A stretch of DNA of 64,000 bases from Candidatus Methylomirabilales bacterium. GTDB taxonomy: Bacteria; Methylomirabilota; Methylomirabilia; Methylomirabilales; CSP1-5. Position 1 is the first letter of the stretch. Each line of letters begins with the position of its first letter. Below are positions 44,986 through 60,380 of the stretch, piece by piece. Both the position numbers and the translations under genes were made by a program. The stretch spans positions 6,273-70,272 of the forward strand of contig JBHIAH010000005.1 in NCBI GenBank assembly GCA_046758505.1, written 5' to 3'. A model generated the notes under the pieces. It was not told where the DNA came from. It ran no database searches and saw nothing but the letters and a program-made list of their open reading frames with translations.

Positions 44986-46104
44986 TTATATTTCCAAGAG
45001 TTTAGGAAACTTCGTCAGATTTCGACAGCCGGTTTCCGTCACCACCACGACATCCTCGACCCGCACCCCGCCTTCCCCCGGATAGTAGAGGCCGGGCTCG
45101 ACGGTCACCACATTTCCGGTCCGCAGCACCGCTCCCCGTTTTCCAATCCGCGGGGGCTCGTGGATCTCGAGCCCCAAGCCATGCCCCGTTCCGTGAAAAA
45201 AGCCTTGCATCCGTCCATCCACCTCGCCGGTGGGGAACCCCAAGCGTTCGAAGACCGCCGCCACCTCCCGGTGGATTGCGGCCCCATCGGCCCCATCCCG
45301 GATCAGGGCAACCGCCCGCTCCTGGGCCTGAAGCACCGCCTCATGCATCCGCCTCACCCGGACAGAGGCGTGTCCCCTGACGACCGTCCGGGTGATGTCG
45401 GCGAAGTAGCGGGTCCGGCTCGAGCGGGGAAAAATATCAATGACGATGGGCTGATGGGCCCTCAGGGGTCCCGTGCCGATCTGATGCGGGTCACTCCCCT
45501 GCTCGCCGCCGGCCACAATCGTATGTTCAGCCATGCAGTCACGGTCGAGGAGCGCATGGTGAATCAGCCTTCTCACCCTTTCCGCCGTGAGGCGCTCACC
45601 CGCGCGATACAGCTCGTCTCCCCGGATTTCGGCCTCGCGGATCGCCTGAACGGCCATGTCCAGTGCTCCTTCAGTGCACCGCAGCGCCTCGGCAATCCAC
45701 CCGACCTCGGCCTCAGACTTGATGAGGCGAGCTTCAAAAAATGTCTCCTCCTTTACCCGGACATGAAACCCCTTGACCCGTAGCTTGTCCGCGTACTCCG
45801 CAGGAAAGCTCCCCGGGACCAGGAGGTGCTGGACCCTCCGCTCCCTGAGTGCCTCATCGACCGCATCGAGCACGGTCGGTTGCATGCCGCGGTCCTTTGC
45901 CCGGTCTTCATACTGTTGCAGCGGGAGGATCGTTTCGACGGCGGCTTGGCTCCTGGCTCGGCCCAGCTCCAAGTCGCTCACCATGATGACCCGTTCCCCC
46001 CCCACCTGAAAGAAGGGGAACGGATCGGGGGCCAGGAAGCGGGTGGCGTAGTACAGGTCGGCATCCCGCTCACTGGCCGCAATGATGAGAAGCGCTTCGC
46101 TCAT
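44986..46104 (-). CDS. Xaa-Pro aminopeptidase (M24B)
   Basis: DIFP..YFADITRT, HGTGHGLGLEIHE, EPGLY, RVED. Confidence 0.9.
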   Translation of the reverse strand: MSEALLIIAASERDADLYYATRFLAPDPFPFFQVGGERVIMVSDLELGRARSQAAVETILPLQQYEDRAKDRGMQPTVLDAVDEALRERRVQHLLVPGSFPAEYADKLRVKGFHVRVKEETFFEARLIKSEAEVGWIAEALRCTEGALDMAVQAIREAEIRGDELYRAGERLTAERVRRLIHHALLDRDCMAEHTIVAGGEQGSDPHQIGTGPLRAHQPIVIDIFPRSSRTRYFADITRTVVRGHASVRVRRMHEAVLQAQERAVALIRDGADGAAIHREVAAVFERLGFPTGEVDGRMQGFFHGTGHGLGLEIHEPPRIGKRGAVLRTGNVVTVEPGLYYPGEGGVRVEDVVVVTETGCRNLTKFPKLLEI

Positions 46105-46110
46105 AGCTCG

Positions 46111-46170
46111 CTACCGTTGACCGACAACCGATGACCGCCACCGGAGTTCACGGTCCGATGTCCGATGTCA
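46111..46170. repeat. Heptamer-repeat arrays (left flank of the structured element)
   Basis: TTGACCG ACAACCG ATGACCG; GTTCACG GTCCGAT GTCCGAT. Confidence 0.75.
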
Positions 46171-46171
46171 C

Positions 46172-46369
46172 CAAGAGCGAGGAGGGGATTCCTTCCGAGG
46201 GCGGCGACATCTGGCTTGCATCGGGCCGGGGTCCCGCCGCCGGAGCGCAGCGTAGGCGGGGGTGGCCCGCCTCGGCAACCTACAACGCCTCAGCATGCGT
46301 ACCGTTGCCTCGGCGCATCACGTCCTCGGAGAATTTGACGCCGCCGAGGAAGGTCCCTCCCAGCTCTTG
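46172..46369. repeat. ~200-nt structured dispersed element, copy 1
   Basis: Long outer stem CAAGAGC/GCTCTTG, GGAGGG/CCCTCC, CCTTCC/GGAAGG, GGCGGCG/CGCCGCC; 57-nt core 52/57 identical to 59313-59369. Confidence 0.8.
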
Positions 46370-46374
46370 CTTTA

Positions 46375-46436
46375 CGGTCATCGGTCATCGGTCATCGACT
46401 TCCCGACATCGGACGTCGCACTCCGGACATCGGGCC
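46375..46436. repeat. Heptamer-repeat arrays (right flank; overlap the 3' end of the FAD oxidoreductase gene)
   Basis: (CGGTCAT)x3; ATCGGAC GTCGCAC TCCGGAC ATCGGGC. Confidence 0.75.
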
Positions 46437-47589
46437 CCATCACGCCATGCATCACCAGCGGTTCCTCAATCAGCCGCCCCTCCTGGAATCTCCGGGGCGA
46501 GAGAGGGGCGATGTCGATTCCGGTAGTCTGACCGTTCAGGATCAGCTCGGCCATCAGCTTTCCGGCCACCGGGCCGTGCATAAAGCCGTGGCCACTGAAG
46601 CCGCACGCCAAGTAAAACCCCCGCACCTCGCTCTCGCCCAGGATCGGATGGTTATCGGGGGAGATGTCATAGAGACCCGCCCACCCCCGCACGATCTCCA
46701 CGTCGGCGAGTGCCGGGAGCCGGTGGACGGCCCTCGCCCGGACCTCCGGCACCATCTCCCAGTCTACCGCCGTGTTGAAACTTGACTCCCGATCGGTCCG
46801 CGCGGGGATCAGAGCCCCTCCCTCTTCCGGCCGGAAGTACCAGTCCCGATGCACGTCGATCGTCACCGGGACCTCCCGTGCGAGCTCGGGTACCGGAGCG
46901 CTCACGAAAAGCTGCCGCCTCCACGGAGTGACCGGCACCATTGCTCCCGCCATCCGCCCGACGGCACCGGCATAGGGTCCGCCGGCATTGACCACCACCG
47001 GCGCCGCAATCGCCCCGTCGCCAGTCTCGACCCCCAGCACCCGGCCCCCCCGAACGCGCACCCCGGTGACCTCACACCGCTCACGCAGCCGGACCCCGAG
47101 GCCGGCCGCCCGCTCCGCATAGCCCCAAACCACCTGAAGGGGAGACGCGTATCCGTCTCCCGGGGAATAGGTCCCCTCCAAGAGATCATCGACCCGGAGG
47201 CACGGTGCAAGGCGCCCGATCTCGACGGGCCGCAGGACCTCCACGGAAACCCCGAGACGCCTCTGCAGTTCCACCGCCTTCCGAAACCGCGTCCGCTCCT
47301 CCTCGGTGCTCTGCAGGAAGAGATACCCGATTTCCCGGAAGTCGGGATCCCACCCCGTTTCCTCCCGGAAGGCCTGGAACATCTTGACGCTTTCGATCGA
47401 GAGTTGGATGTGGATCTCGGTGAGGAACTGGCGCCGGATCCCCCCAGCCGACCGGCCGGTGGAGCCGCCCCCCAGGTGTCCCTGCTCGAGAAGAACGACC
47501 TTGAGACGAGAACTCCGCGCCAGATGATAGGCGATGCTACAGCCGACGATGCCACCCCCGATGATGCAGACGTCCACTCGATCCGGCAC
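46378..47589 (-). CDS. FAD-dependent oxidoreductase (sarcosine oxidase beta/DadA family)
   Basis: IIGGGIVG, STGRSAG, WAGLY...PD..PILG, GFSGHGF. Confidence 0.88.
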   Translation of the reverse strand: MPDRVDVCIIGGGIVGCSIAYHLARSSRLKVVLLEQGHLGGGSTGRSAGGIRRQFLTEIHIQLSIESVKMFQAFREETGWDPDFREIGYLFLQSTEEERTRFRKAVELQRRLGVSVEVLRPVEIGRLAPCLRVDDLLEGTYSPGDGYASPLQVVWGYAERAAGLGVRLRERCEVTGVRVRGGRVLGVETGDGAIAAPVVVNAGGPYAGAVGRMAGAMVPVTPWRRQLFVSAPVPELAREVPVTIDVHRDWYFRPEEGGALIPARTDRESSFNTAVDWEMVPEVRARAVHRLPALADVEIVRGWAGLYDISPDNHPILGESEVRGFYLACGFSGHGFMHGPVAGKLMAELILNGQTTGIDIAPLSPRRFQEGRLIEEPLVMHGVMGPDVRSATSDVGKSMTDDR

Positions 47590-47591
47590 GG

Positions 47592-50500
47592 CTATGGCGT
47601 GAACGGACCGGGGCCCCCAGGCTCAGCCCCTGCCTCGACCACCTCTGCAGCCCGGTCCTTTTGCCTCACGGCATGCGGGAGGATTTTCCAGAACAGGCAG
47701 AGATAATGGTCCCAGCGCTCCAGAATCTCCCGGGACCGGTCACTCTTGGTGACCTCGAGATGTCGCAGGACCAGAGCGCGAAGCTCCTCGGCATCTTCGG
47801 CCCGCTCCACCCGCTCGATCCCGACCAGTTCCGGGTTATAGCGCTGGGGAAACGTTCCGTCCTCATCCAGCACGTAGGCGACGCCGTTCGTCATCCCGGC
47901 GCCGAAGTTCCGGCCGGTCCCGCCCAGAACCACCACACACCCCGCCGTCATGTACTCACAGCCGTGATCCCCAACGCCCTCGACCACGGCAGTGGCCCCG
48001 CTGTTTCGGATGGCAAACCGCTCCCCCGCCTGGCCGGCCGCCCAGAGGAAACCCCCGGTGGCCCCGTAGAGACAGGTGTTGCCCATGATCACATTTTCGT
48101 GCGAGCGATACCGGGCCTCGGGGGGCGGCACCAGGATGAGCTCGCCCCCGCCCAACCCCTTCCCCACATAATCGTTGGCCTCCCCCACCAAGACAAAGCG
48201 CATGCCCGGTGTCAGAAAGGCCCCAAAGCTTTGGCCAGCACTCCCCCTGAAGAAGACCTCAACGCTCCCCGCGGACAGTCCCCGATCCCCGTACCGGAGG
48301 GCGATCTGACCCGCCAGCGTGGCCCCCACTGTCCGGTCGGTGTTGCCGATCCTGTAACTCAAACGGAGCGGCACCTTCCCCTCGAGCACCCCCCTGGCAT
48401 CGCGCAGGAGAACATCGTTAAAGGGCTCGTCCGGCCGATCGTTCCGGCGCTGGATCGCGCGCCTCGGCCTCGTGCCGCTCGGATCCGGATCGGCGAGGAT
48501 CGCCTGCAGGTTGAGGCGCGAGGCCTTCGGATGGCCAGGGGGCGGGACCGGCGCCAACAGATCCGTCCGCCCGATAACCTCGTCAAGTGTGCGGAAGCCG
48601 AGGCCGGCCAGGATCTCCCGGACCTCGTGGGCGACATGGGTGAGAAAATGAACCAGCATCTCGGGTGTGCCCCGGAACTTCGCCCGGAGGTCCGGCCTCT
48701 GGGTCGCCACCCCGACCGGACACGTATTCAGATGGCACTGCCGGGTCATGACGCACCCGACGGCCACCACGGCGGCAGAGCCAAAGCCGTACTCTTCCGC
48801 GCCCAGCATGGCAGCAACCATTACATCCCGGCCGGTCTTCATCCCTCCATCCACGCGTAAGGTGACCCGTCCCCGGAGGTCATTCCAGACCAAGACCTGC
48901 TGTGTCTCGGCAAGTCCCAGCTCCCAGGGGGCGCCGGCATTCTTGATGGAGCTGATCGGAGAGGCCCCCGTCCCCCCGTCGTGGCCGCTGATCAGGATCA
49001 CATCGGCGTATCCCTTCGCCACCCCCGCCGCAATGGTCCCCACGCCGGCCTCGGCCACGAGCTTCACGCCCACCGTCGCCTGGCGGTTGACCTCCTTCAG
49101 GTCGTAGATGAGCTGGCTCAGGTCTTCGATGGAGTAGATGTCGTGATGGGGTGGGGGCGAGATCAGGGGAATCCCCGGGACGGCGTGACGAATCTTCGCG
49201 ATCATCTCCGAAACCTTGTGCCCGGGAAGTTGTCCCCCCTCGCCCGGCTTGGACCCTTGGGCCATCTTGATCTCGAGCTGCTCCGCCCGGACCAGATACT
49301 CCGGGGTGACGCCAAAGCGGCCGGAGGCCACCTGCTTGATCTTGGAGTTGGCGCTGTCGCCATTTGCACAGGGGATCCACCAGGCGGGATCTTCCCCCCC
49401 CTCCCCCGTGTTGGACTTGGCCCCGATCCGGTTCATCGCGATGGCAATGGTCCGATGGGTCTCCGGCGAGAGGGCGCCCAAAGACATGGCCTGCGTGGTG
49501 AAGCGGCGTCGGATCGCTTCCACCGGCTCTACCTGGTCGATGGGGAGGGGGGCATTCGGGGACTGAAAGCGGAGCAGATCCCTGAGCGCCAAGGGCTCTC
49601 GGCTGTTCACCAGCCCCGCGTACTGCCGATACTCCTGATAGTCACCCCCCTTGGCGGAGTGCTGCAGGGCCTTCACCATCTTGGGGAAGAAGGCGTGCTG
49701 CTCGCCGCTCTGGCGGAAGCGATAGAATCCGATCTCGGGGAGCTTCGCCGACGGTTCCATGCCGTACGCTTCGCCGTGCCGCATCAGCACATCCGCGCAC
49801 AGCTCCCCGTACCCGACACCCCCAATCCGAGAGGGGGTACCGAGGAAGGAGCGTGCGATTACCTCATCATCGAGCCCGACCGCCTCGAAGATCTGAGCCC
49901 CTTGGTAGCTCGTGAGGGTGGAGATCCCCATCTTGGACATCACCTTCAGGATTCCCTTCCTGAGGGCGCTCCGGTAGTTTTTGAGGGCCTGCTCCACCGA
50001 CAGGCCTTCTGTCGTGGCCGCCCGGGCCAGATTCTTGACCGTCTGAAAGGCGAGGTAGGGGTTCACGGCGGACGCCCCGTACCCGATGAGGCAGGCCAGG
50101 TGGTGGACCTCCCATGCCTCGGCCGTCTCCACCAACAGATCCACCCGCATCCGCTTCCCCTCGCGAATCAGGTGATGGTGGACCGACCCGACACAGAGGA
50201 GCATGGGGACCGGGGCATGGGTCCCGTCGACCCCCCGATCGCTCAGGATGAGAAGCGTCTTCCCTTGATCCACGGCCTGACTGGCCGCCTCGCACAGCGC
50301 GGCCACCGCGGCCCGCATCCCCTCGGCGCCTCCGGCCACCGGGAAGAGGGTGGAGAGGGTCACGGCGGCAAACCGAGGATCCTTCAGCCTCCGGAGAGGC
50401 TCGAGCTCATGATCCTCGAGCAGGGGGCTTTTCAGGTGGATCAGGTGCGCGTGGTGCGGCGTCTCATCGAGGAGGGAGCCCTTGGGGCCGAGATAGACAT

Positions 50501-52133
50501 GGGACGACATCACCAGGCGCTCTCGCAGCGGGTCGATGGGGGGGTTGGTCACCTGGGCGAAGCGCTGCTTGAAATAGCCGTAGAGGAGCCGGGGTCGGCG
50601 CGAGAGGACCGCGAGGGGGGTGTCGTTCCCCATCGAGAAGACCGGTTCCTTGTTCTCGGCAAACATCGGCTTGAGGACGAGCTCGATCTCTTCGTTCGTG
50701 TACCCAAAGCAGACCTGCTGCCGCCAGAGGCTGGTCCCGTTTCCGCCACCCGCTCCTCCGTCGGCGGCGGGGGGGGCGATGGCAACCCGCAGGAGGTGCT
50801 TCTCGATCCAATCCCCGTATGGCCGCCTCCGGGCCATCTCTGCCTTGATCTCCGCGTTATGCTGCAGGACCCCCCGGCGGGTATCCACGGCGATCATCTG
50901 CCCCGGCCCCAACCGTCCCTTCTGCACAATCCTTCGCTCATCCAGATCCAGGACCCCCACTTCCGACGCCATCAGGACGATCCCATCCTCGGTGACCGCA
51001 TACCGGGCGGGGCGGAGGCCGTTTCGGTCCAGGGTCGCCCCGACCACCGTCCCGTCGGTGAACGCAAGCGCCGCCGGACCGTCCCAGGCCTCGGTCAGGC
51101 AGGCGTGGTACTCGTAAAACGCCCTGAGGTGCGGGTCCATCCCCGGCATGTTTTCCCAGGCTTCGGGAACCAGCATCATGAAGGCGTGCCGGATGTCCCG
51201 GCCGGACATGACCACCGCCTCGACCGCGTTGTCCAGATGGGCCGAGTCGCTGCCTCCCGGGGTCAGGATCGGCCGGAGCAACGAGACCCGGTCTTTCCAC
51301 ACCCGGGAGGTGAGTTCCTTTTCCCGGGCGTACATCCAGTTCTGATTGCCCTGGAGGGTGTTGATCTCGCCGTTATGGCCCAGCATGCGAAAGGGTTGCG
51401 CCAAGAACCAAGTGGGAAACGTGTTCGTGGAATACCGCTGGTGAAAGACGGCCAGGGCGGTCTTAAAGGCTGGATCCTGAAGGTCCCGATAGAACCGCCT
51501 GAGCTGCGGGGCGACGAAAAGCCCCTTATAGACGATCGTCCGGTGGGAGAAAGAGGGAATGCAAAAATCCCGGACCTGCTCGGCCCAGACCTGCCTCTCG
51601 ATCTCTTTCCGGCAGAGATAGAGGATCCGCTCGTACTCCTCGTCGGACGCCCCCAGCGGCCGCCCCATGAGAAACTGCTCGATCTGGGGGACGCCGGCGA
51701 GGGCTGTCTCACCCAAGGCGCTGAGATCCACCGGGACAGGACGCCACCCAAAGATCCGAAGTCCGTGTCGGGTCGCGCTCCCCTCCACGATGGCCCTGCA
51801 GAGGTGTTGACCCTCGAGATCCGGCCTGGGGAGAAAGAGCATGCCGATGCCGAGGTCCGCCCCCCCCACGAGCGGGACCCCGCACCGCTCCAGGTCCCGT
51901 CGAAACAGCTCCTGCGGGATCTGCGTCAGGACCCCCGCCCCATCGCCGGTCTTGCCGTCTGCCGAGACCGCGCCCCGGTGGGTGACATTCACCACCGCCT
52001 GGATTGCCATCTCGAGGATGGCGTGACTGCGGGTCCCCGAAACGTCGGCTACGAAGCCAACCCCGCAGGCATCCCGCTCTGTAAAGAGGGGATGCGCCCG
52101 CACACCGGGGGGATGGCGCTCTGCCTCCCTCAT
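47592..52133 (-). CDS. gltB: Glutamate synthase large subunit
   Basis: ERDACGVG (N-terminal Cys), HQRYSTNT, QGSKPGEGG, CHLNTCPVG, C-terminal GXGXG repeats. Confidence 0.95.
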   Translation of the reverse strand: MREAERHPPGVRAHPLFTERDACGVGFVADVSGTRSHAILEMAIQAVVNVTHRGAVSADGKTGDGAGVLTQIPQELFRRDLERCGVPLVGGADLGIGMLFLPRPDLEGQHLCRAIVEGSATRHGLRIFGWRPVPVDLSALGETALAGVPQIEQFLMGRPLGASDEEYERILYLCRKEIERQVWAEQVRDFCIPSFSHRTIVYKGLFVAPQLRRFYRDLQDPAFKTALAVFHQRYSTNTFPTWFLAQPFRMLGHNGEINTLQGNQNWMYAREKELTSRVWKDRVSLLRPILTPGGSDSAHLDNAVEAVVMSGRDIRHAFMMLVPEAWENMPGMDPHLRAFYEYHACLTEAWDGPAALAFTDGTVVGATLDRNGLRPARYAVTEDGIVLMASEVGVLDLDERRIVQKGRLGPGQMIAVDTRRGVLQHNAEIKAEMARRRPYGDWIEKHLLRVAIAPPAADGGAGGGNGTSLWRQQVCFGYTNEEIELVLKPMFAENKEPVFSMGNDTPLAVLSRRPRLLYGYFKQRFAQVTNPPIDPLRERLVMSSHVYLGPKGSLLDETPHHAHLIHLKSPLLEDHELEPLRRLKDPRFAAVTLSTLFPVAGGAEGMRAAVAALCEAASQAVDQGKTLLILSDRGVDGTHAPVPMLLCVGSVHHHLIREGKRMRVDLLVETAEAWEVHHLACLIGYGASAVNPYLAFQTVKNLARAATTEGLSVEQALKNYRSALRKGILKVMSKMGISTLTSYQGAQIFEAVGLDDEVIARSFLGTPSRIGGVGYGELCADVLMRHGEAYGMEPSAKLPEIGFYRFRQSGEQHAFFPKMVKALQHSAKGGDYQEYRQYAGLVNSREPLALRDLLRFQSPNAPLPIDQVEPVEAIRRRFTTQAMSLGALSPETHRTIAIAMNRIGAKSNTGEGGEDPAWWIPCANGDSANSKIKQVASGRFGVTPEYLVRAEQLEIKMAQGSKPGEGGQLPGHKVSEMIAKIRHAVPGIPLISPPPHHDIYSIEDLSQLIYDLKEVNRQATVGVKLVAEAGVGTIAAGVAKGYADVILISGHDGGTGASPISSIKNAGAPWELGLAETQQVLVWNDLRGRVTLRVDGGMKTGRDVMVAAMLGAEEYGFGSAAVVAVGCVMTRQCHLNTCPVGVATQRPDLRAKFRGTPEMLVHFLTHVAHEVREILAGLGFRTLDEVIGRTDLLAPVPPPGHPKASRLNLQAILADPDPSGTRPRRAIQRRNDRPDEPFNDVLLRDARGVLEGKVPLRLSYRIGNTDRTVGATLAGQIALRYGDRGLSAGSVEVFFRGSAGQSFGAFLTPGMRFVLVGEANDYVGKGLGGGELILVPPPEARYRSHENVIMGNTCLYGATGGFLWAAGQAGERFAIRNSGATAVVEGVGDHGCEYMTAGCVVVLGGTGRNFGAGMTNGVAYVLDEDGTFPQRYNPELVGIERVERAEDAEELRALVLRHLEVTKSDRSREILERWDHYLCLFWKILPHAVRQKDRAAEVVEAGAEPGGPGPFTP

Positions 52134-52291
52134 CGTGGCTTCTGCTTTCCCAGACACCTGTCCTCTCCCCCTGCGCAATCGCCCAGGATAACCCTATTCT
52201 ACTGCTGCTCACTTGTTCGAGCAACGCGAATGGCAAATGTGATGGAGGAGGGTGGGCGAAAGACCGTATCGGAGACGGTGTGCCTCTTCCC

Positions 52292-53344
52292 CTAGCCCCC
52301 GATGTAGGACATCTCGATCCTGTGGAGCCCCGCCGTCTCGCCCGAGCGGACCTCCGAGTAGCGGTCGGTGCGGCCCTGCCAGATCCGGCCGATGGCGGTG
52401 CGAATCGCGGCGTCAGAGGCGCCTCCGCGGAGGAGGCCGCACAGATCATGGCCCGCGGAGGCAAAGAGGCAGGTATACAGTTTTCCCTCGGCGGAGAGGC
52501 GCGCCCGCGTGCAGTCGCCGCAGAAGGGCCGGGTCACCGACGCGATGACGCCGATTTCCCCGCCGCCGTCCCGGTAGCGCCAGCGCCGGGCGACCTCGCC
52601 CCGGTAGTTTGGGTCGGCCGGCTCGAGCGGCAACTCGGCGTGGATCCGCCGCACGATCTCTGCCGCCGGGACCACGTCGTCGAGCCGCCACCCGTTCGTC
52701 GCCCCGACGTCCATGTACTCGATAAACCGTAGGACGTGCCCGGTCCCGCGGAAGAAGTGAGCCATGGGGAGAATGCCGTGGTCATTGACCCCGCGCTTGA
52801 CCACCATGTTGACTTTAACGGGCTTGAGCCCCGCCGCAGCGGCGGCCGCGATCCCATCCAGAACCCGGTCCACGGCGACGCCGACATCATTCATCGCCTG
52901 AAACACGGCGTTGTCCAGTGCATCGAGGCTTACCGTGACCCGTGTAAGCCCGGCCGCGCGGAGGGCCTCGGCCTGCTGGGCGAGAAGCACGCCGTTGGTG
53001 GTAAGCGTCAGATCGAGCCCCGGGAGACCCGCGAGCATCCGCACCAACCGGTCCAGGTTGCGGCGCAGCAGCGGCTCCCCCCCGGTCAGGCGGAGCTTCT
53101 GGACGCCGTGGGCCTGGAAGAGCCGGGTGAGGCGCGTGATCTCCTCAAAGGTGAGGAGCGCTTCACGCTCGAGGAACGGGTAGTCCCGGCCGAAGACTTC
53201 TTTCGGCATGCAGTAGACGCACCGGAAGTTACAACGGTCGGTGACCGAGACCCGGAGATCGCGGAGGGGACGGCCGAGGGTGTCGGTGACGCTTTCGGGT
53301 GGTTTCGGTGGCTGACCCTTCGTGATAGGCGTCCGCTCAGACAT
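52292..53344 (-). CDS. moaA: GTP 3',8-cyclase (molybdenum cofactor biosynthesis)
   Basis: [22 protein letters not shown]-terminal MSYIGG. Confidence 0.95.
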
Positions 53345-53346
53345 GA

Positions 53347-53498
53347 GCTCACGGCCACGGTTCAGGGTTCAGAGTCGAGGGTTCATGGTGCATAGTTCAG
53401 GGTTCAGGGTGAAACGACCAAGCTTCATCGCCGACAATCCCAAGTGTACCATGAACCACGAACCATGAACCGTCAATAGGCCATCGGTCAACGGGCAT
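53347..53498. repeat. Intergenic inverted heptamer-repeat array
   Basis: About 9 GTTCAGG-type units, a spacer, then CATGAAC CACGAAC CATGAAC CGTCAAT and CGGTCAA-type units. Confidence 0.8.
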
Positions 53499-53501
53499 CA
53501 A

Positions 53502-53996
53502 TCATTGCGCCTGTTTCTTGGCGATCGTGTACCGCTCGATCTTCTCCTGGAGCTTCAGCACCCCGTAGATGAGGGCTTCCGGCCGCGGGGGGCAGCCGGG
53601 GACGTAGACATCCACCGGCACGACCAGGTCCACCCCCTTGACCACGTGGTAGGCGTCGTAATAAAAGGGCCCACCGGAAATGGCACACGCCCCCATGGCG
53701 ATGACCCACTTGGGCTCGGGCATCTGTTCGTACAGGGTCTTGATTCTGGGGGCCATCTTTTCCGTTACCGTCCCAGCCACGATCATGACGTCCGACTGTC
53801 TGGGGGAAGGGCGAAAGACGCCCGCCCCGAGCCGGTCCAGATCAAACCGGGAAGCCCCCGTCGCCATCATTTCGATCGCACAGCACGCCAACCCAAAGGT
53901 CATCGGCCAGGGAGACGACTTGCGGGCCCAGTTAAAGAGCCAGTCGAGCGTGGTGGTCACGACCCCTGGCTCGATTTTCCCTTCTAAGACACTCAT
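53502..53996 (-). CDS. nuoB: NADH-quinone oxidoreductase subunit B (second stand-alone copy)
   Basis: [38 protein letters not shown]. Confidence 0.92.
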
Positions 53997-54020
53997 CGGT
54001 GCCTCCGTAAACCCGGACCC

Positions 54021-55481
54021 CTAAAGGCCCAGGGAGAGAAACTTCACCTCCAAAAACTCCTCGATCCCTTCCCGGCCTCCCTCGCGGCCCAGCCCGCTCT
54101 CTTTCACTCCGCCAAAGGGGGCTTGGGGGACCGAGGGACTTCCGTCGTTTACCCCAATGATCCCGTACTCGAGCTGCTCCGCCACCCGGAAGCAGCGACT
54201 CACATTCTGGCTGTAAAAATACGCCGCGAGCCCGTACCGCGTGTCGTTCGCCGCCCGAATCACTTCCGCTTCATCCCGAAAGGAAATCAAGGGGGCGACA
54301 GGCCCGAAGGTTTCCTCTTCCAGGATCCGCATCCCCTTCCGAACATCGGTCAGGACGGTCGGCTCAAAGAAGCGGCCCTGGGCGAACGGCCCCTCCGTCC
54401 GGGGCTTGCCCCCCGTGAGGACCTTGGCCCCCTTGGCGATGGCGTCCTCGACGTGCGTGCAGACCTTCTTGAACCCCTGTTCGTCGATCAGCGGGCCGAC
54501 CTGTACGCCCTCGTCCAGCCCGTTTCCCAGCGTGAATCGCTTCACCTGCTCGACGAATTTGGCCGCGAAGGATTCCAGGATCGACTCGTGGACGTACATG
54601 CGATTGGCGCAGATGCAGGTCTGCCCCATGTTCCTGAACTTCGAGGCTACCGCCCCGGCCACGGCCTTGTCCACGTCGGCATCCTCGAAGACGATGAACG
54701 GCGCGTGTCCCCCGAGCTCGAGGGAGACGCGCTTTACATGCTCGGAGGCGCCGCGCATCAAGAGCTTGCCGACCTCGACCGAGCCGGTAAACGTAATCAT
54801 GCGGACCAGGGGGTTTTCCAGAAGCTCCCGGCCCACCCCCCCCGGGTCCGAGGTGGTGATGCAATTGACCACGCCCCCCGGCAAGCCGGCCTCCTCGAAG
54901 ATCTTGCACAGGGCAATCGCGGTGAGGGGGGTCTGCTCAGCCGGTTTCAGCACCACTGTGCACCCGGCCGCCAGGGCCGCCGCGATCTTTCGCGTCACCA
55001 TGGCGGCGGGAAAATTCCAAGGGGTGATGGCCGCCACCACCCCGATAGGCTGCTTGATCACCAGAAGGCGCTTGGTCGCCACCGAGGCGGGAATCGTCTC
55101 GCCGTAGACCCGCTTTGCCTCCTCGGCAAACCACGCCACAAACCCGGCCGCATACGCGATCTCCCCCCGGGACTCGACCAGCGGCTTGCCCTGCTCCGAG
55201 GTCAGGGTTCGGGCCAACGCCTCCTTGCGCTCGAGCATCAGGTCTCTGACCTTGAAGAGGAGTTTGGCGCGCTGCGTGGCCGCGAGCGCCGACCAGTCCG
55301 GGAAGACCCGGTGCGCCGCTTCGACGGCCCGCGCCGCATCCTGGGGTCCCGCATCGGGGGCCGCGGCGAGCTCTTCGCCCGTCGCGGGGTTATGCACGGA
55401 AAACGTGCGTCCCGACGAGGCATCGACCCATTGCCCATCGATATACTGTCGAGGCCGCCCCTCAATCACCGTGGAAGACAT
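54021..55481 (-). CDS. gabD: NAD(P)-dependent succinate-semialdehyde dehydrogenase
   Basis: ITPWNFP, FTGS, LELGG, FRNMGQTCIC, EETFGP, FGGVKESGLGREG. Confidence 0.88.
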   Translation of the reverse strand: MSSTVIEGRPRQYIDGQWVDASSGRTFSVHNPATGEELAAAPDAGPQDAARAVEAAHRVFPDWSALAATQRAKLLFKVRDLMLERKEALARTLTSEQGKPLVESRGEIAYAAGFVAWFAEEAKRVYGETIPASVATKRLLVIKQPIGVVAAITPWNFPAAMVTRKIAAALAAGCTVVLKPAEQTPLTAIALCKIFEEAGLPGGVVNCITTSDPGGVGRELLENPLVRMITFTGSVEVGKLLMRGASEHVKRVSLELGGHAPFIVFEDADVDKAVAGAVASKFRNMGQTCICANRMYVHESILESFAAKFVEQVKRFTLGNGLDEGVQVGPLIDEQGFKKVCTHVEDAIAKGAKVLTGGKPRTEGPFAQGRFFEPTVLTDVRKGMRILEEETFGPVAPLISFRDEAEVIRAANDTRYGLAAYFYSQNVSRCFRVAEQLEYGIIGVNDGSPSVPQAPFGGVKESGLGREGGREGIEEFLEVKFLSLGL

Positions 55482-55538
55482 ATCCCGTTCCGTTTCCTGG
55501 AAATGAATTTTTTAAAGGAAGGTCAATGCTTTATAAAA

Positions 55539-55568
55539 AGTATAGGGGGGCGAGTCCCGGCGTGTCAA
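55539..55568 (-). promoter_or_regulatory. Sigma70-type promoter for gabD and downstream genes
   Basis: TTGACA-N18-TATACT on the minus strand. Confidence 0.6.
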
Positions 55569-55841
55569 GGCCTTGTTGCGCTTAGGGAAGACAACAAGGG
55601 TACGGCCCACTGCTGTCCAACACAAGTTTCAGCCAGCGCCCTTTCTGGTCTAACTCATTGAATTATAAGTGGCCCGCCGGCCGCTCAAATTTGAGGTTCC
55701 TCGGCTGGCCAGATACTGTCCAGGACGCCACCGCGACTGCCAGATGAGACAGCGGAGCCTCGCAGGGTGTAGCATCAAGGCTGTCCGAGCTTTTCTGAGC
55801 CTATAAGGGCCCGGCACGTGCCAAACAGACGCGGTAAATGC

Positions 55842-55879
55842 TGTCCAAGACCGCTTTGGCCAAAAAGCTATCTTGGACA
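55842..55879. terminator. Hairpin downstream of the DedA-PAP2 gene
   Basis: TGTCCAAGA/TCTTGGACA with inner GCTTT/AAAGC; no clear U-tract. Confidence 0.35.
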
Positions 55880-55975
55880 AGAGTGGGTACGGCCCCCTTT
55901 TCCAGACTCACACAGCCGGGAGGTACCTCAACAACCACACGTACTTGGGGGGCTTCTCTCCGCCCCATTCTCCTC

Positions 55976-58090
55976 TCAATCCTCCAGATCAATTACATAC
56001 ACCTTGCCATCGGTAAAAAACGGATCGCCGAGAAAATTTTGCCCAAGTGCCGGCTTCACGAATTGTTTCCTGCTGAATGTTCTTACAGCACCCGCTCGTT
56101 TTAGATCGCCAAACAAAAATTCCCGTTCCCCATCTATATCCGGCTCGATCCTATGCGCCACGAGCCACCTTATGCCCCGATCCATGCTCGCCGTACCGAC
56201 ATAAATTACCCTCCCATCGTCGGTCCTGAATTGCGTTCGCCAAAATCGCGCATGATGGCGTTCCGCCAACTTTTTTGCCTCTGTCTGTTTTTCAAAACCC
56301 AGGTCGTGAACACGCGCATCCCAGAAAGAAGGTGTAATCGGCGCCTCAGGATAATTTGATTCAAGCAGGGCAGCTCTCACCAGCTTCGCAAACGATGAAA
56401 GGTTCAGCGCATCTGCCACATGCCAACCGGCCTTCCGAAACGTATCTATAAGGTGCTGGTCGTCGCTCGTGATTAGGATCACACTTAGCGGTTCCTGATG
56501 CCTGCCTATGATCGTTTCCGTGTACTTCATCTGATCATTTTGAAATAGATCCATGACGTTCGAGACGACAGTTGCTGTTGGCCCCGCGTGGCCACCGACA
56601 AGGGCCGGCTGAAACTGCGCGCCAACGCCTGCGTAAATGCCGATGACTCCAATCATGATTACTACCGAGACCGCCCTTGCGCCCGCCCTCGCTTGCACTG
56701 GGATAGAATTACTCTTTTTCGAACGCATCCACTCTGTAAGGGTAATGCCGAGAATCAGCCACACAGCCCCCACCAGATAGCCACCCCAGACATCGCTCAC
56801 ATAATGGACGCCTAGATAGAGACGGCTGAAGCCGACGAGTATTATGGCAAGCGCCCCCGCGAATAAGGTATTCACTTTCACGGCCCAGCCTTTGGCATTC
56901 CGGATAAGCAGGTACGCAAGAAACCCATAAAACGCCATTGCGATCGTCGCGTGCCCACTCGGAAAGGAAAACGACTGCTCCGTGTACGCGGCAAGAGGGG
57001 GCCGGGGACGCTGAAATACGATCTTTCCGAGCTGCGTGAACGCCTCGCTGCCAATACTCGCAACCAGCAGCGGTGCGATGTAGATTTCTTGCCGCCACAA
57101 CCACAGAAGCACGCACGCCGCCGTTGCGACACTCAGCACGATCTGCCACTTTCCAAGTAAGGTGACCCAAAGAAAAAAGGTCGTGAGTTCCCTACTCCGA
57201 AATGCAACCAAGAGATTTGCCACTCGCATATCAGCGGCAACGATGGGGTCCGACGTGAGCACATCCTCGGCAACACCAGCAAGCAGAAGCAGCGCATAGA
57301 CAAACGCGATGGAAAGCACCGTAAGGGGTAAGCCAGAAAACTTTGACTTGTCGAGACGATCCGCGACAAATCGAAAGAAAAAGGGATGCCGGTTCACAAG
57401 TGCTCGCACGTCGGGATTTCCAACAATTGCATCTTTGATCGATTGCCACATTGACCAGGCGAGGGTAAGCAGATATTTTCCCTTTCTTACGACGAACCGC
57501 TTCAGCAGGTACAAAACACCAAGGAAAATCAGAAGCCCGCCTATCACGAGGCCGACGCGCGAGAGCCACATTTCGGCAAGCTGCAGCGATTTTCCGAAGA
57601 GGAAGCCTGCGAACACATGTTCGAAACCCCAAAGGATAGCGCCGATCGCATTCGCGACAAAGAACCTTTTCCTGCCCATCCCCGCCATGCCGGCCACGAC
57701 CGGTATGTTTTCCCGAAGTCCAGGCACGAACCGCGCCAGAAAAACACCTTTCCCGCCCCGGGCTTCGAAAAAGCACCGTGCCCTCTCAAGGTGTTTCGGA
57801 TTGAGAATTCTATGTTCTTCCCTAAAGATGTGCTTGAAGCGCTTACCAACGTCATAGCCGACATTATCTCCCATCACGGCTCCAACGATCGCAAACCACA
57901 ACAAGTCTCCGACGTCGAGATAACCGCGCGCAGCGATCGCACCAAGGAAGAGTACCGTGACAGAGCCGGGGACAAGCATACCGGCCACCGGAGCGCTCTC
58001 AAGAAGCGCAGCAAAAAAGGCTATCCAGTAGCCTACTATTCTGAAATGCTCAATGGAGGGCAAGAGCAGTGTGAGGAGCTGATCGAACAT
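55976..58090 (-). CDS. Bifunctional DedA/PAP2 phosphatase with LssY-like C-terminal domain
   Basis: LES...PG, GDNVGY, ARFVP (DedA); K..RPRP, FPSGH, SRLYLGVHYVSDV (PAP2); EP, RHHARFW, IDGER; lower GC than flanks. Confidence 0.88.
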   Translation of the reverse strand: MFDQLLTLLLPSIEHFRIVGYWIAFFAALLESAPVAGMLVPGSVTVLFLGAIAARGYLDVGDLLWFAIVGAVMGDNVGYDVGKRFKHIFREEHRILNPKHLERARCFFEARGGKGVFLARFVPGLRENIPVVAGMAGMGRKRFFVANAIGAILWGFEHVFAGFLFGKSLQLAEMWLSRVGLVIGGLLIFLGVLYLLKRFVVRKGKYLLTLAWSMWQSIKDAIVGNPDVRALVNRHPFFFRFVADRLDKSKFSGLPLTVLSIAFVYALLLLAGVAEDVLTSDPIVAADMRVANLLVAFRSRELTTFFLWVTLLGKWQIVLSVATAACVLLWLWRQEIYIAPLLVASIGSEAFTQLGKIVFQRPRPPLAAYTEQSFSFPSGHATIAMAFYGFLAYLLIRNAKGWAVKVNTLFAGALAIILVGFSRLYLGVHYVSDVWGGYLVGAVWLILGITLTEWMRSKKSNSIPVQARAGARAVSVVIMIGVIGIYAGVGAQFQPALVGGHAGPTATVVSNVMDLFQNDQMKYTETIIGRHQEPLSVILITSDDQHLIDTFRKAGWHVADALNLSSFAKLVRAALLESNYPEAPITPSFWDARVHDLGFEKQTEAKKLAERHHARFWRTQFRTDDGRVIYVGTASMDRGIRWLVAHRIEPDIDGEREFLFGDLKRAGAVRTFSRKQFVKPALGQNFLGDPFFTDGKVYVIDLED

Positions 58091-58621
58091 GTTGTTACCC
58101 GATCACGTCGCCCCGGAAGGCTCCTTATGGAAACAGGCCGGATGGGTGGCACCAGCCTCTCGATCCTCCCCGAGGCACGAAGGCCAAGGTGTACCCGTCT
58201 GTCAGTGCGTGGCGTCGGACCTTTCATGCTTGGGCCGAAGGGTTGGCAATTTCGTATTTGACACCTCCCCCGTGTCTACTCAACATCCAGGTACTCAAGC
58301 GCGCGACCCTTCGCCCTGCCTCTCGATCAGCCGGCATCTCCTGCGAGGCCTCATTATCAGGGGCGGGGGGGACGGAGTCGCCAGGCCCGTGAGCTGGGGT
58401 GATGCCGCCTCGGACAGTACCGAAACCGGTGCGAGCTCGAACGTGCGCTCTCGCGGTGGTTGTGGCAGTCTAACCGCTCCGTGCGCATAAGGGACGCCGG
58501 CCGGCGGACTCCCTTGGAAGCCCTGCACACATTACGGACCTCGGTGGCCCCCCAACCCAATTTCTCGGTGTGTCACCGGAGCGTGATAGCGTGACACGGT
58601 CGCACGGCAAACTGCGGGGGG

Positions 58622-58897
58622 CTAATCCGCCAGGATGAGACGGCCTCCCACCAAGGCGAGGACGAGGCCGAGGACCCAGAGCCAGGGGAAGCTCCCGACG
58701 TAGTACCAGGCAACAAAGGGATAGGCCGGCGCCGAGAGGGGGACCAGGGAGACGGCGAAGAGGGCCCCCATGATCCCGAAGATCTCGAGATACCCCGAGA
58801 CCATGAACCCGAAGACGACCGTCATGAGGACGACCCAGCTCGTCCCCAGGCAGAACCCCCAGAATCGCGGTCCCCGCTTTCGAAACGACTCGGCCAT
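58622..58897 (-). CDS. Small hypothetical membrane protein
   Basis: 91 aa, three hydrophobic segments, GAGGG RBS. Confidence 0.55.
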   Translation of the reverse strand: MAESFRKRGPRFWGFCLGTSWVVLMTVVFGFMVSGYLEIFGIMGALFAVSLVPLSAPAYPFVAWYYVGSFPWLWVLGLVLALVGGRLILAD

Positions 58898-58975
58898 GGC
58901 AGATCAACCCTCGATTCGGTAGCCCAGCATCGATCACGAGACCAGCACGGAGCATATAGCGAGACAGTCACCGCG

Positions 58976-59218
58976 TCAACGTACTGATCTTCCGGCTTTG
59001 GGGTCCGGCTGCCGTCCCCTCAGCCACATCTCCAACGCCTCTTCAAGACAGGCATCGAGGTCTCGCCCCTCAGCGGCGAGCAGGCGACTTACCTTTTTGA
59101 CCAGGGGGGCACTGAGGAAGACCGTGACCCGCTTCCGGGCACCCGACCGCCGATGTCGCCGCCCCCGCCTCACCTCACGCTTGGCCCGCGGCGTCGGTCT
59201 TCTTATTACTTTTACCAT
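58976..59218 (-). CDS. Small basic ribbon-helix-helix-like protein
   Basis: KRVTVFLSAPLVKKV...GRDLDACLEEALEMWL strand-helix-helix pattern; AAGGA RBS. Confidence 0.5.
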   Translation of the reverse strand: MVKVIRRPTPRAKREVRRGRRHRRSGARKRVTVFLSAPLVKKVSRLLAAEGRDLDACLEEALEMWLRGRQPDPKAGRSVR

Positions 59219-59278
59219 GTCCTTCGCACTCCCCCTCCTCCACCACGAGACAAGACCAACCGATGTCGCCAATTGCGA

Positions 59279-59467
59279 ACCGGCGAGGGGAGCAACCTGA
59301 GGAAGGCGGAACCTGGTTTGCGTCCGGCCGGGGTCCCGCCGCCGGAGCGCAGTGCAGGCGGGGGTGGCCGCCCTGATGCTGCATGACCCGCCTGGCGCGT
59401 AATGGATGACTTCCGCTACGGCACCCCATGGAATTTTCCGCCGACGAAGGATGTCTCCCGAGCCGGT
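59279..59467. repeat. ~190-nt structured dispersed element, copy 2
   Basis: Outer stem ACCGGC/GCCGGT, GGGAG/CTCCC, CCT/AGG, GGCGGAA/TTCCGCC; core shared with 46211-46267. Confidence 0.8.
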
Positions 59468-59501
59468 GAGCCGAGAGGCGACAGGACCCGTTGGCCCGGC
59501 A

Positions 59502-60380
59502 CTATGGGACCGTGGGGCGACCCGCGTCAATCCAGGCGCTGTACCAGAGGCTTCCGAGGTCCGTCGCCGCCTGCGCCATGCTGAGCTTCGCCAGCTTGCC
59601 GGCAAAGACGTGCAGGGCCGCGTAGTAGGCGTCCTCAAAGCCCCGCACCCCCCGGCGCGCCAGCGTATCGGCGCGCAGGACGTTATCCACCCAGACATAG
59701 CTGTCAATGAGAAAGTCGAAGGTGAAGGCGATTGGATCGCCGGCCCGCTGGGCCGGCTGGGTGAACGCGGCCAGATCGTGGTATTGCGCCAGGTGCCGGC
59801 GGATCATCTCGTCCTCAAAGCGCTTGTGAATCCCCCGGTTGCCGGTCAACTGGCCGTCATAGTTTGTCGTGGTGTGCAGCGGCTGGTGCCCGTCGGCCAC
59901 ATAGTGGCCGAGGCGGGCCGCCACGAGCGGCACGCGGCTCCAGTCCGGGGTCCGCATGGCCCGCACCAGTTCCCGATACAGCTCGGCAATCCGCCACGGC
60001 AACAGCCCGGCCTCCTCCAGCCGCTCCCGACCGTATTTGGCTAGGGCCTGCTTGTAGTTCCGGGGAATCTCGCGGAAGGGAAAGCGGTCGAGCTCGTCCA
60101 GGTCGAACCAGTGCCGGATCCGCTCCGCTTCCCCCTCCCGAGCGGTCAGGACCGTATCGGGATCCCTGCCGTGCTCGCCGATGTAGGCCTGGTGTTTCAT
60201 GAAAAAGCGCCGGAGCGGCCCCGGCAGCGTCGTGCAGGCTGAGCGGTTGATGAGGACGTGCGCCTCAAGGCCCCACCCGTGCGCCGGCACCGGCCACGAG
60301 AGCCCGAGGACCCCCATCAGCGCGAGCGCGCACCCCACCCGGCCCCCTCGCGCCCCACCCCGATGTCCGGTGAGCATCAT
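59502..60380 (-). CDS. Exported S1/P1 nuclease or Zn-dependent phospholipase C family protein
   Basis: Signal peptide ending AHG|WGLEAH; HWFD; HYVADGHQPLH; GIHKRFE; start uncertain. Confidence 0.8.
   Translation of the reverse strand: MMLTGHRGGARGGRVGCALALMGVLGLSWPVPAHGWGLEAHVLINRSACTTLPGPLRRFFMKHQAYIGEHGRDPDTVLTAREGEAERIRHWFDLDELDRFPFREIPRNYKQALAKYGRERLEEAGLLPWRIAELYRELVRAMRTPDWSRVPLVAARLGHYVADGHQPLHTTTNYDGQLTGNRGIHKRFEDEMIRRHLAQYHDLAAFTQPAQRAGDPIAFTFDFLIDSYVWVDNVLRADTLARRGVRGFEDAYYAALHVFAGKLAKLSMAQAATDLGSLWYSAWIDAGRPTVP

Follow-up and report, generated by a model that had tools for sequence, protein, structure and literature searches.

Several families of short structured repeats are known from bacterial genomes, and they are the reference points for the element described here, a ~190-nucleotide (nt) hairpin repeat with two copies in a 64,000-nt stretch of DNA (hereafter, the window) from a Candidatus Methylomirabilales bacterium of the phylum NC10/Methylomirabilota (contig JBHIAH010000005.1, positions 6,273 to 70,272). 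Like the element, the REP, BIME and REPIN repeats that go with RAYT proteins are intergenic, multicopy, imperfect hairpins of single-stranded DNA (ssDNA) with doublets, mosaics and a narrow range (PMC3733652, PMC6006769, PMC3116915). However, REPs and REPINs measure 20–40 nt, whereas the element is ~190 nt long and branched. The GTAG/CGTC tag at the foot of a REP hairpin is not characteristic of the element, in which GTAG lies near the end of 6 and CGTC near the end of 8 of 97 full-length copies. Moreover, a REP flanks its RAYT gene, whereas the element occurs within 200 nt of none of the 12 Y1_Tnp genes in the genome of the window (G000). The arrangement of IS200/IS605 ends or of an omega-RNA, with tnpA/tnpB between or beside the hairpins, was not found either.

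The Ssn nucleases cut ssDNA at oriented hairpin repeats, and their SRM and NTS repeats resemble the element in being oriented hairpins that are read as ssDNA (PMC11893778). In addition, modules from the leaders of GIY-YIG genes occur in flanks of the element. SRMs are 20–50 nt long and flank the nuclease gene, whereas the element lies beside none of 20 small GIY-YIG loci and shares with one leader subfamily a layout but not a sequence. Integron attC sites likewise conserve structure over sequence and have one active strand, which lies on the leading-strand template of the chromosome (PMC5371416). Neither R'' (RYYYAAC) nor R' (GTTRRRY) boxes were found at the ends of the 97 copies (0/97), no match to an intact integron integrase exceeded the cut-off, and, in contrast to attC sites, the element forms no cassette arrays and has copies inside housekeeping operons.

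Bacterial miniature inverted-repeat transposable elements (MITEs) such as ERIC, RUP, NEMIS and bcr1 are, like the element, non-coding, structured, lineage-restricted, variably present and 70–300 nt in length, and bcr1 duplicates a TTTAT target (PMC3733652, PMC6199540). The element differs from them in that it has no target duplication, arms that vary between subfamilies and copies, swapped interiors and no partner insertion sequence (IS) that we could find. Terminal inverted repeats in common with an autonomous IS were not found in the assembled sequence, where the arms differ among the four subfamilies and none was found to enclose an open reading frame (ORF). The MITE bcr1 keeps a fixed replichore orientation. 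Finally, the cyanobacterial SDRs and STRR heptamers of Elhai et al. 2008 reportedly show compensatory changes, mutual nesting, embedding in heptamer arrays and an unknown mode of mobilisation, with SDRs of 21–27 nt. The element resembles them in its compensatory changes, its nesting and its embedding in heptamers, but the unit is some eightfold longer and its loop signature is of the DNA type.

The sequence-only reading of the window had proposed a novel structured RNA or a MITE. The Rfam cmscan that it suggested as a check returned no family at the gathering score over the window, and the best E-values for both copies and 12 further loci were 1–2.4, none of them credible. A literature search found no description of the family, with subscription journals and supplements outside its coverage. 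The analysis below indicates a real and apparently undescribed form of non-autonomous structured repeat, most likely one that acts at the DNA level, with a testable link to replication.

A repeat family of one genus

Two copies had been recognised from the sequence, and this number holds inside the window, but not genome-wide. An iterated profile search of G000 (2.99 Mb, 62.7% GC, 96.8% complete) gave 36 matches, comprising 29 full copies (longer than 140 nt) and 7 partial ones. Well-assembled genomes carry ~30 copies each, at sites between genes. The element is present in all 13 other genomes of the genus (13/13), while a single weak match among 27 more distant genomes falls in coding-like sequence. 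With a covariance model, strict filters and 16 candidates scored per genome, the element was detected in 10/10 genomes of the same genus and in 0/140 others of the phylum sample. The exact core pattern, taken with one genome per species, was present in 49 stretches, and the records that carry a taxon name were Methylomirabilota/NC10 throughout (including 'NC10 bacterium CSP1-5'), bar one Nitrospiraceae bin. This bin is likely misbinned, and its copy appears to precede the same gene as a copy in the genus. Plasmid and phage collections gave no match. Overall, the element is a repeat family of one uncultured NC10 genus.

Among 2.9 million viral contigs, the core pattern matched once, in a GC-rich intergenic hairpin at positions 48–110 of a 1719-nt contig (L176). 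This contig also has a TAGTATTAC nonamer and Rep- and capsid-like ORFs, and is probably a CRESS ssDNA virus. The match, a single case, may reflect convergent use of the GNA-GC-GNA-GC-GNA hairpin in ssDNA.

The fold is built into one strand and is likely a DNA fold

The two window copies comprise the following parts.

46172..46369, plus strand: copy a (subfamily a), 198 nt; four-helix outer stem broken by tandem G·A mismatches, closing the core hairpin and a variable interior
CAAGAGC at 46172 with GCTCTTG at 46363, plus strand: copy a, helix 1
GGAGGG at 46181 with CCCTCC at 46355, plus strand: copy a, helix 2
CCTTCC at 46191 with GGAAGG at 46348, plus strand: copy a, helix 3
GGCGGCG at 46200 with CGCCGCC at 46339, plus strand: copy a, helix 4
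46331, plus strand: copy a, GAATTT motif
46211..46267, plus strand: copy a, conserved 57-nt core
46237..46259, plus strand: copy a, core hairpin, stem-GGA-GC-(GCA triloop, 46247-46249)-GC-GTA-stem
46120..46169, plus strand: left heptamer arrays of copy a, with GACCGAN, GTTCACG and GTCCGAT units
46376..46433, plus strand: right heptamer arrays of copy a, GGTCATC x3 followed by ATCGGAC-type units; these overlap the 3' end of the minus-strand oxidoreductase ORF
59279..59467, plus strand: copy b (subfamily b), 189 nt; architecture as in copy a, with different arm sequences
ACCGGC at 59279 with GCCGGT at 59462, plus strand: copy b, helix
GGGAG at 59288 with CTCCC at 59455, plus strand: copy b, helix
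GGCGGAA at 59305 with TTCCGCC at 59436, plus strand: copy b, helix
59431, plus strand: copy b, GAATTT motif
59313..59369, plus strand: copy b, conserved 57-nt core
59339..59361, plus strand: copy b, core hairpin with GCA triloop at 59349-59351
59256..59494, plus strand: outer layer around copy b, with CCAAC/GTTGG and TGTCGCC/GGCGACA pairings; also present in other subfamily-b copies and nested forms

The stem segments, core and GAATTT motifs of the sequence-only reading were each recovered at their places, and the two cores agree at 52 of 57 positions. Its boundaries were too narrow, as copy b has the further paired layer at 59256-59494 and copy a is embedded in 7-nt tandem arrays. The folding z-scores are −3.8 for copy a and −2.7 for copy b, and none of 200 dinucleotide shuffles folded as well (0/200).

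Across the family, four arm subfamilies (a–d) surround one core and three unpaired conserved motifs, CTGGYTTGCG, GCGYGKAA and GAAT. Because mutual information was dominated by subfamily structure, we scored 20 pairs named by hand, together with the pairing of arms within each copy; in the MAFFT alignment, the ends of the arms did not line up between subfamilies in the outermost segments, and RNAalifold on the mixed alignment recovered the inner pairs of the outer stem and misfolded the core. In an alignment of 61 copies, which also served for the mismatch counts, 92.1% of the cells of the named pairs are paired and 13 pairs show two-sided change. The covariation score was 0.345, compared with 0.154 for shuffled alignments (0/500 as high) and at most 0.12 when the structure was slid, for a structure chosen from these same sequences and with many of the changes being subfamily-level events. 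Swapping arms within subfamilies provided a stricter check, in which kinship inside subfamilies still counts. Own arms paired better than swapped ones in subfamilies a (n = 23) and c (n = 20; p = 5e-5 in both), b (n = 12; p = 0.026) and d (n = 4; p = 0.042). The covariation claimed from two copies therefore extends to the 61-copy alignment, while the accompanying claim that compensatory change implies selection is likely but unproven, since templated repair of imperfect palindromes yields the same pattern.

The mismatches within the stems are one-sided. In the 61 copies, G·A occurs 299 times versus 11 for C·T, tandem GA 112 times versus 0 for TC, and G·T 76 times versus 42 for A·C. Because of this asymmetry, only the plus strand, as written in the window, is built to fold. 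The core has the layout stem-GNA-GC-GNA-GC-GNA-stem, and its triloop is GNA, closed as C-GNA-G, in 79 of the 83 copies that could be parsed among the 97, with N being C in 37, A in 20, T in 13 and G in 9. In G000, the core GNA motif occurs 23 times, always in the element family, and 0 times in the reversed genome. The core hairpin of copy a is a GC-GNA-GC DNA mini-hairpin placed on a 3x3 GNA/GNA loop. The sequence d(GCGNAGC) is a classic, extraordinarily stable, nuclease-resistant DNA mini-hairpin, and the related GCGAAAGC hairpin melts at 39 °C as RNA versus 76.5 °C as DNA (PMC13037366, PMC3201870). Judging from the GNA triloop with its free N and from the pyrimidine-GA-purine tandem mismatches, the folded molecule is likely DNA.

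The interior at 46267-46320 of copy a and the copy at G000:C100:1958-2155 have a common variant. In its stem stands a tandem T·C mismatch, which puts the tandem G·A on the other strand and departs from the family's rule.

Orientation relative to replication

Leading strands were called from the G/C skew at fourfold sites on fragmented assemblies. In G000, 29 of 33 called matches have the folding strand on the lagging-type strand. The final call was a likelihood call on full-length copies only, with relatives represented by 40 regions picked around copies in seven genomes. Lone full copies place the folding strand on the presumed nascent lagging strand by 19:1 in G000 and by 23:5 (1 uncalled) in the relatives, whereas head-to-head doublets, which have a folding module on each strand, are unbiased (5:4 in G000 and 5:8 in relatives). 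The G000 controls lack such a bias, with 4:7 for generic intergenic C-GNA-G hairpins, 9:9 for RAYT-type REPs and 19:19 for GACCGA arrays; GTTCATG arrays lean 65:36. Beside co-directional flanking genes, the folding strand is the antisense one in 18/24 cases. Where transcription and replication are in conflict, 7 copies follow replication and 1 follows transcription. We infer from the skew that the folding strand matches the Okazaki strand in sequence and is located on the template of the leading strand, and the orientation tracks the deduced direction of replication at least as well as that of transcription.

IS608-type enzymes act on the lagging-strand template (PMC5027513, PMC6006769), and the polarity of the element is opposite to this rule of the IS200/IS605 enzymes. 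The attC sites of sedentary integrons share the polarity of the element: their bottom strands are mostly located on the template of the leading strand, and excision is limited as a result (PMC5371416). For CTG repeats, placement on the lagging template mostly leads to contraction and the reverse placement to expansion, although a contrary result in yeast is reported as well (PMC3310812). Insertions by lambda Red are most efficient with ssDNA that primes Okazaki-like synthesis (PMC2918612).

Site dynamics and modular composition

The genes beside the two copies are neighbours and not parts of the element.

44986..46104, minus strand: M24 metallopeptidase, start codon 67 nt from copy a
46378..47556, minus strand: FAD-dependent oxidoreductase (Pfam DAO), start codon approximate
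58976..59218, minus strand: 80-aa basic ORF, no Pfam hit, kept in relatives, start codon 60 nt from copy b
59502..60380, minus strand: ~292-aa ORF, no Pfam hit, kept in 10/15 family genomes

The distances of 67 nt (start at 46104) and 60 nt (start at 59218) agree with the 60–70 nt noted earlier. The 80-aa ORF has an Arg-rich N terminus and is a possible ribbon-helix-helix protein. In the DAO ORF, the right heptamer array (46376-46433) gives the 3' end a repeat-coded tail of ~19 residues, and the match to this ORF in G006 and G003 stops near residue 373 of 392.

Both sites vary between relatives. At site a (14 loci in 13 genomes), the full element is present in one orientation in G000, G006 and G001, whereas G010 has a related arm with another module, reversed; G012, G002, G003 and G009 (contig ends) have heptamer arrays only, and the remaining loci, which have another upstream gene or belong to the sister genus, lack the element. 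At site b (10 loci), G009 has a full reversed copy, G007 and G011 have reversed arms-only forms, four syntenic genomes lack the element and two genomes are not syntenic. Elsewhere, b arms are nested in a arms, and interiors have been deleted to leave arms only. A sister module of 190 nt, with 10 full copies in G000, has the same outer G·A layout; it takes the place of the interior or faces c/d copies head-to-head. This module (G000:C35:11369-11560 and 9 other sites) has GAAA/GTAA/GAGA tetraloops and is found inserted in the element or head-to-head with it. A third module, with a CCCGTCCGTCCTC-type motif, goes with b-type arms in relatives (L027, L059, L065, L265 and similar loci), and a search for its motifs in G000 found none.

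Copy a and the C100 copy are mutual nearest neighbours among 39 type-a copies (93.7%), whereas either one reaches only ~86% against its same-site counterpart in a relative, which indicates one copying event inside the genome. On average, copies at the same site are more alike than copies at different sites (0.91 vs 0.87, with an automatic and imperfect site grouping), and for 11 of the 22 copies that have a same-site partner, the nearest neighbour is at that site, so both inheritance and conversion take place. No target-site duplication was detected, as direct repeats flanking 95 copies are at most 6 nt long, as in shuffled pairs. The MITE option of the sequence-only reading thus fits in copy number, presence and absence at orthologous sites and covariation, and fails in target-site duplications, a fixed terminal inverted repeat and a cognate transposase.

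Heptamer arrays lie on the left side of 34/39 type-a copies, and the left units of copy a also flank four-helix-bundle genes (23S intervening sequence [IVS] type) of the genus. Most of these genes (L116-L145) are bracketed by heptamer arrays whose unit differs per gene subfamily and is often inverted, and the sole copy in G000 (L041) has an internal TAG.

A version of the element that carries a gene was not found, either in G000 or among metagenome matches of the a-type arm. A de novo search of G000 for G·A-type arms enclosing genes gave 17 pairs, of which 4 enclose ORFs, all host-type and at chance level or in heptamer arrays. Of 29 metagenome matches of the a-type 5' arm, 18 have the standard length; the other 11, without a partner by the 3'-arm pattern, run into other repeat modules (7), to the contig end (3) or into a host gene (1).

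Candidate mobilising enzymes

Among the candidates examined, no enzyme is linked to the element by position. RAYT proteins lack such a link, as the element occurs in none of the 200-nt flanks on either side of the 12 Y1_Tnp genes of G000. These loci (214-336 aa) form an unusually large RAYT-like set, and most are bracketed by short inverted repeats of their own, of GGGGTCAG type or related. Small GIY-YIG genes are the best candidates, yet they also have no positional link, since the element lies within 220-260 nt of 0/20 loci shown (read by eye). Small GIY-YIG genes directly behind tRNA genes have hairpin leaders of G·A/GNA type (G000:C57:11769-12011, C15:590-862; L270-L291), and partial or altered tRNA copies precede or follow some of them (L270, L271, L276, L286).

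IS110 (one fragment) and tyrosine recombinases (two XerC/D-sized genes and two C-terminal fragments in G000) showed no positional link either. Integron-type integrase C-terminal fragments lie at G000:C23:32119-32394 and C86:10705-10887, one of them behind a gene labelled by eye as toxin-antitoxin-like. The TnpB zinc ribbon was not found in G000, at its 96.8% completeness. Four-helix-bundle genes share heptamers with the element, but no hairpin arm of it was found in 30 loci of the genus. No reverse transcriptase was found in G000, whereas 4/14 relatives have one.

Discussion

Our leading account, for which we would claim somewhat less than even confidence, is that the element is a non-coding modular repeat, one strand of which folds as ssDNA, and that it lacks its own enzyme gene and enters new or already occupied sites at the replication fork as part of the nascent lagging strand. 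The folded molecule would be DNA, and the folding strand would have the sequence of the Okazaki strand. A nuclease-resistant hairpin copy might then be freed as a flap or by a hairpin-specific nick, for which small GIY-YIG/Ssn-like nucleases are rated the best candidates. Through its tails (heptamer arrays, or the arms of a copy already in place), the freed copy would anneal to the lagging-strand template where this is exposed, and it would be incorporated, its hairpin looped out, in the manner of a recombineering oligonucleotide. The G·A mismatches could weaken the fold of the opposite strand, and with it cruciforms, to a level that the host tolerates. Gain at the fork would account for the missing target duplication, nesting, interior swaps, targeting of heptamer arrays and polarity by one process.

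Several points weigh against this account. The three unpaired motifs are left unaccounted for and point to a specific protein partner. RNA, too, is stabilised by tandem G·A pairs and by G·T wobble, and the predicted energy difference between the strands is larger under RNA parameters (−9.3 kcal/mol) than under those for DNA (−3.5 kcal/mol; ViennaRNA); because of the tandem G·A pairs and this difference, the GNA and G·A evidence favours DNA while leaving RNA some probability. The mobilising step, including the release of ssDNA, is not among the observations, and the mechanism is a deduction. RecT annealase was not found in G000, so annealing would need host or transient phage proteins; DprA is present. 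As to polarity, the leading strand was called by skew on fragmented assemblies, a first, cruder and underpowered call on the relatives, with partial matches included and many uncalled, gave 18:9 (p = 0.12), orthologous copies are not independent, the conflict count of 7:1 is low, and at site b the reversed copy of G009 breaks the rule. Furthermore, the same polarity would be expected if copies with the folding strand on the lagging template were lost. Lastly, many copies are old and inherited, as the same-site similarity indicates.

A bolder form of the fork account, which we consider rather speculative, is that the element belongs to a class of selfish DNA that has no enzyme and homes in the guise of a synthetic Okazaki fragment. 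Its copies would be natural recombineering oligonucleotides protected by the G·A/GNA fold, and heptamer tails from four-helix-bundle cassettes would be landing pads across the genome. If this were true, copies would stack inside one another and align with the replication fork.

The main alternative to copying at the fork, possible though doubtful, is that a dedicated enzyme (RAYT/HUH or an Ssn-type GIY-YIG nuclease) moves the ssDNA hairpin in trans and in either orientation, and that the polarity results from excision or deletion of copies with the folding strand on the lagging-strand template, as for attC in sedentary integrons, whose polarity limits excision (PMC5371416). G000 offers 12 Y1_Tnp genes and four small GIY-YIG genes as sources of such an enzyme. 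One GIY-YIG leader (G000:C57) has a stem-GNA-GC-loop-GC-GNA-stem layout like the element, and a short leader hairpin module (L283) also occurs in the flank of the G001 copy at site a (L046). Arms-only deletion forms exist, and the conserved unpaired motifs would suit a protein recognition site. However, the 200-nt flanks of the RAYT genes are unlike the element and mostly have their own inverted repeats, and none of the 20 GIY-YIG loci has it within 220-260 nt. IS608-type enzymes would give the opposite polarity for insertion (PMC5027513, PMC6006769). Loss alone is mildly disfavoured by at least 22 doublets, each of which has kept a module in the orientation, and so on the strand, that is supposed to be unstable.

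It is unlikely that the element is instead a multicopy structured RNA, be it an antisense or small RNA or a non-autonomous retro-element with the folding strand as complementary DNA (cDNA). The predicted RNA fold is strong, with the plus strand lower in energy in 90/97 copies, the sister module has GNRA-type loops, reverse transcriptases occur in some relatives, and the folding strand is antisense to its co-directional neighbours, as cDNA of an mRNA would be. On the other hand, Rfam has no match, no folding-strand promoter was found at either window copy, and the one terminator-like site on the plus strand is upstream of copy b. The flanking sequence is not conserved, the free N of the triloop fits DNA, and no reverse transcriptase was found in G000, the genome with the most copies seen.

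Still less probable is a largely neutral repeat, in which templated correction of imperfect palindromes keeps the arms paired and gene conversion homogenises the copies, the fold itself not being selected. The outermost helix does vary between copies and yet remains paired, copy a and the C100 copy have a common converted interior, and decayed copies exist. However, templated correction removes mismatches, whereas tandem G·A and three GNA units are kept across four subfamilies with N free, and this account explains neither the spread to new sites nor the polarity.

The position of both window copies 60-67 nt upstream of a start codon would suit a cis-regulatory RNA, be it a riboswitch or an attenuator, that controls the downstream minus-strand gene. 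This reading is scarcely tenable: the mRNA would bear the weakly folding strand, the 116 flanking ORFs form 76 unrelated protein clusters with no common function, and start-codon distances range from <20 to >350 nt. It is largely refuted by the two window sites, at which relatives have the element shortened, reversed or not at all.

The host is uncultured, which limits present interest. For RNA motif discovery, the family is a caution that an intergenic 190-nt structure upstream of a gene can be a DNA element even if it covaries and is Rfam-negative. The origin and spread of short structured repeats that lack a gene for an enzyme (REP-like repeats, SDRs, ERIC and heptamer arrays) is a long-standing question, for which this family provides several handles: the fold can be assigned to one strand from the bases themselves, the doublets are a built-in control, and the polarity is opposite to the IS608/RAYT rule. 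This polarity makes gain on the nascent lagging strand testable against loss from the lagging template.

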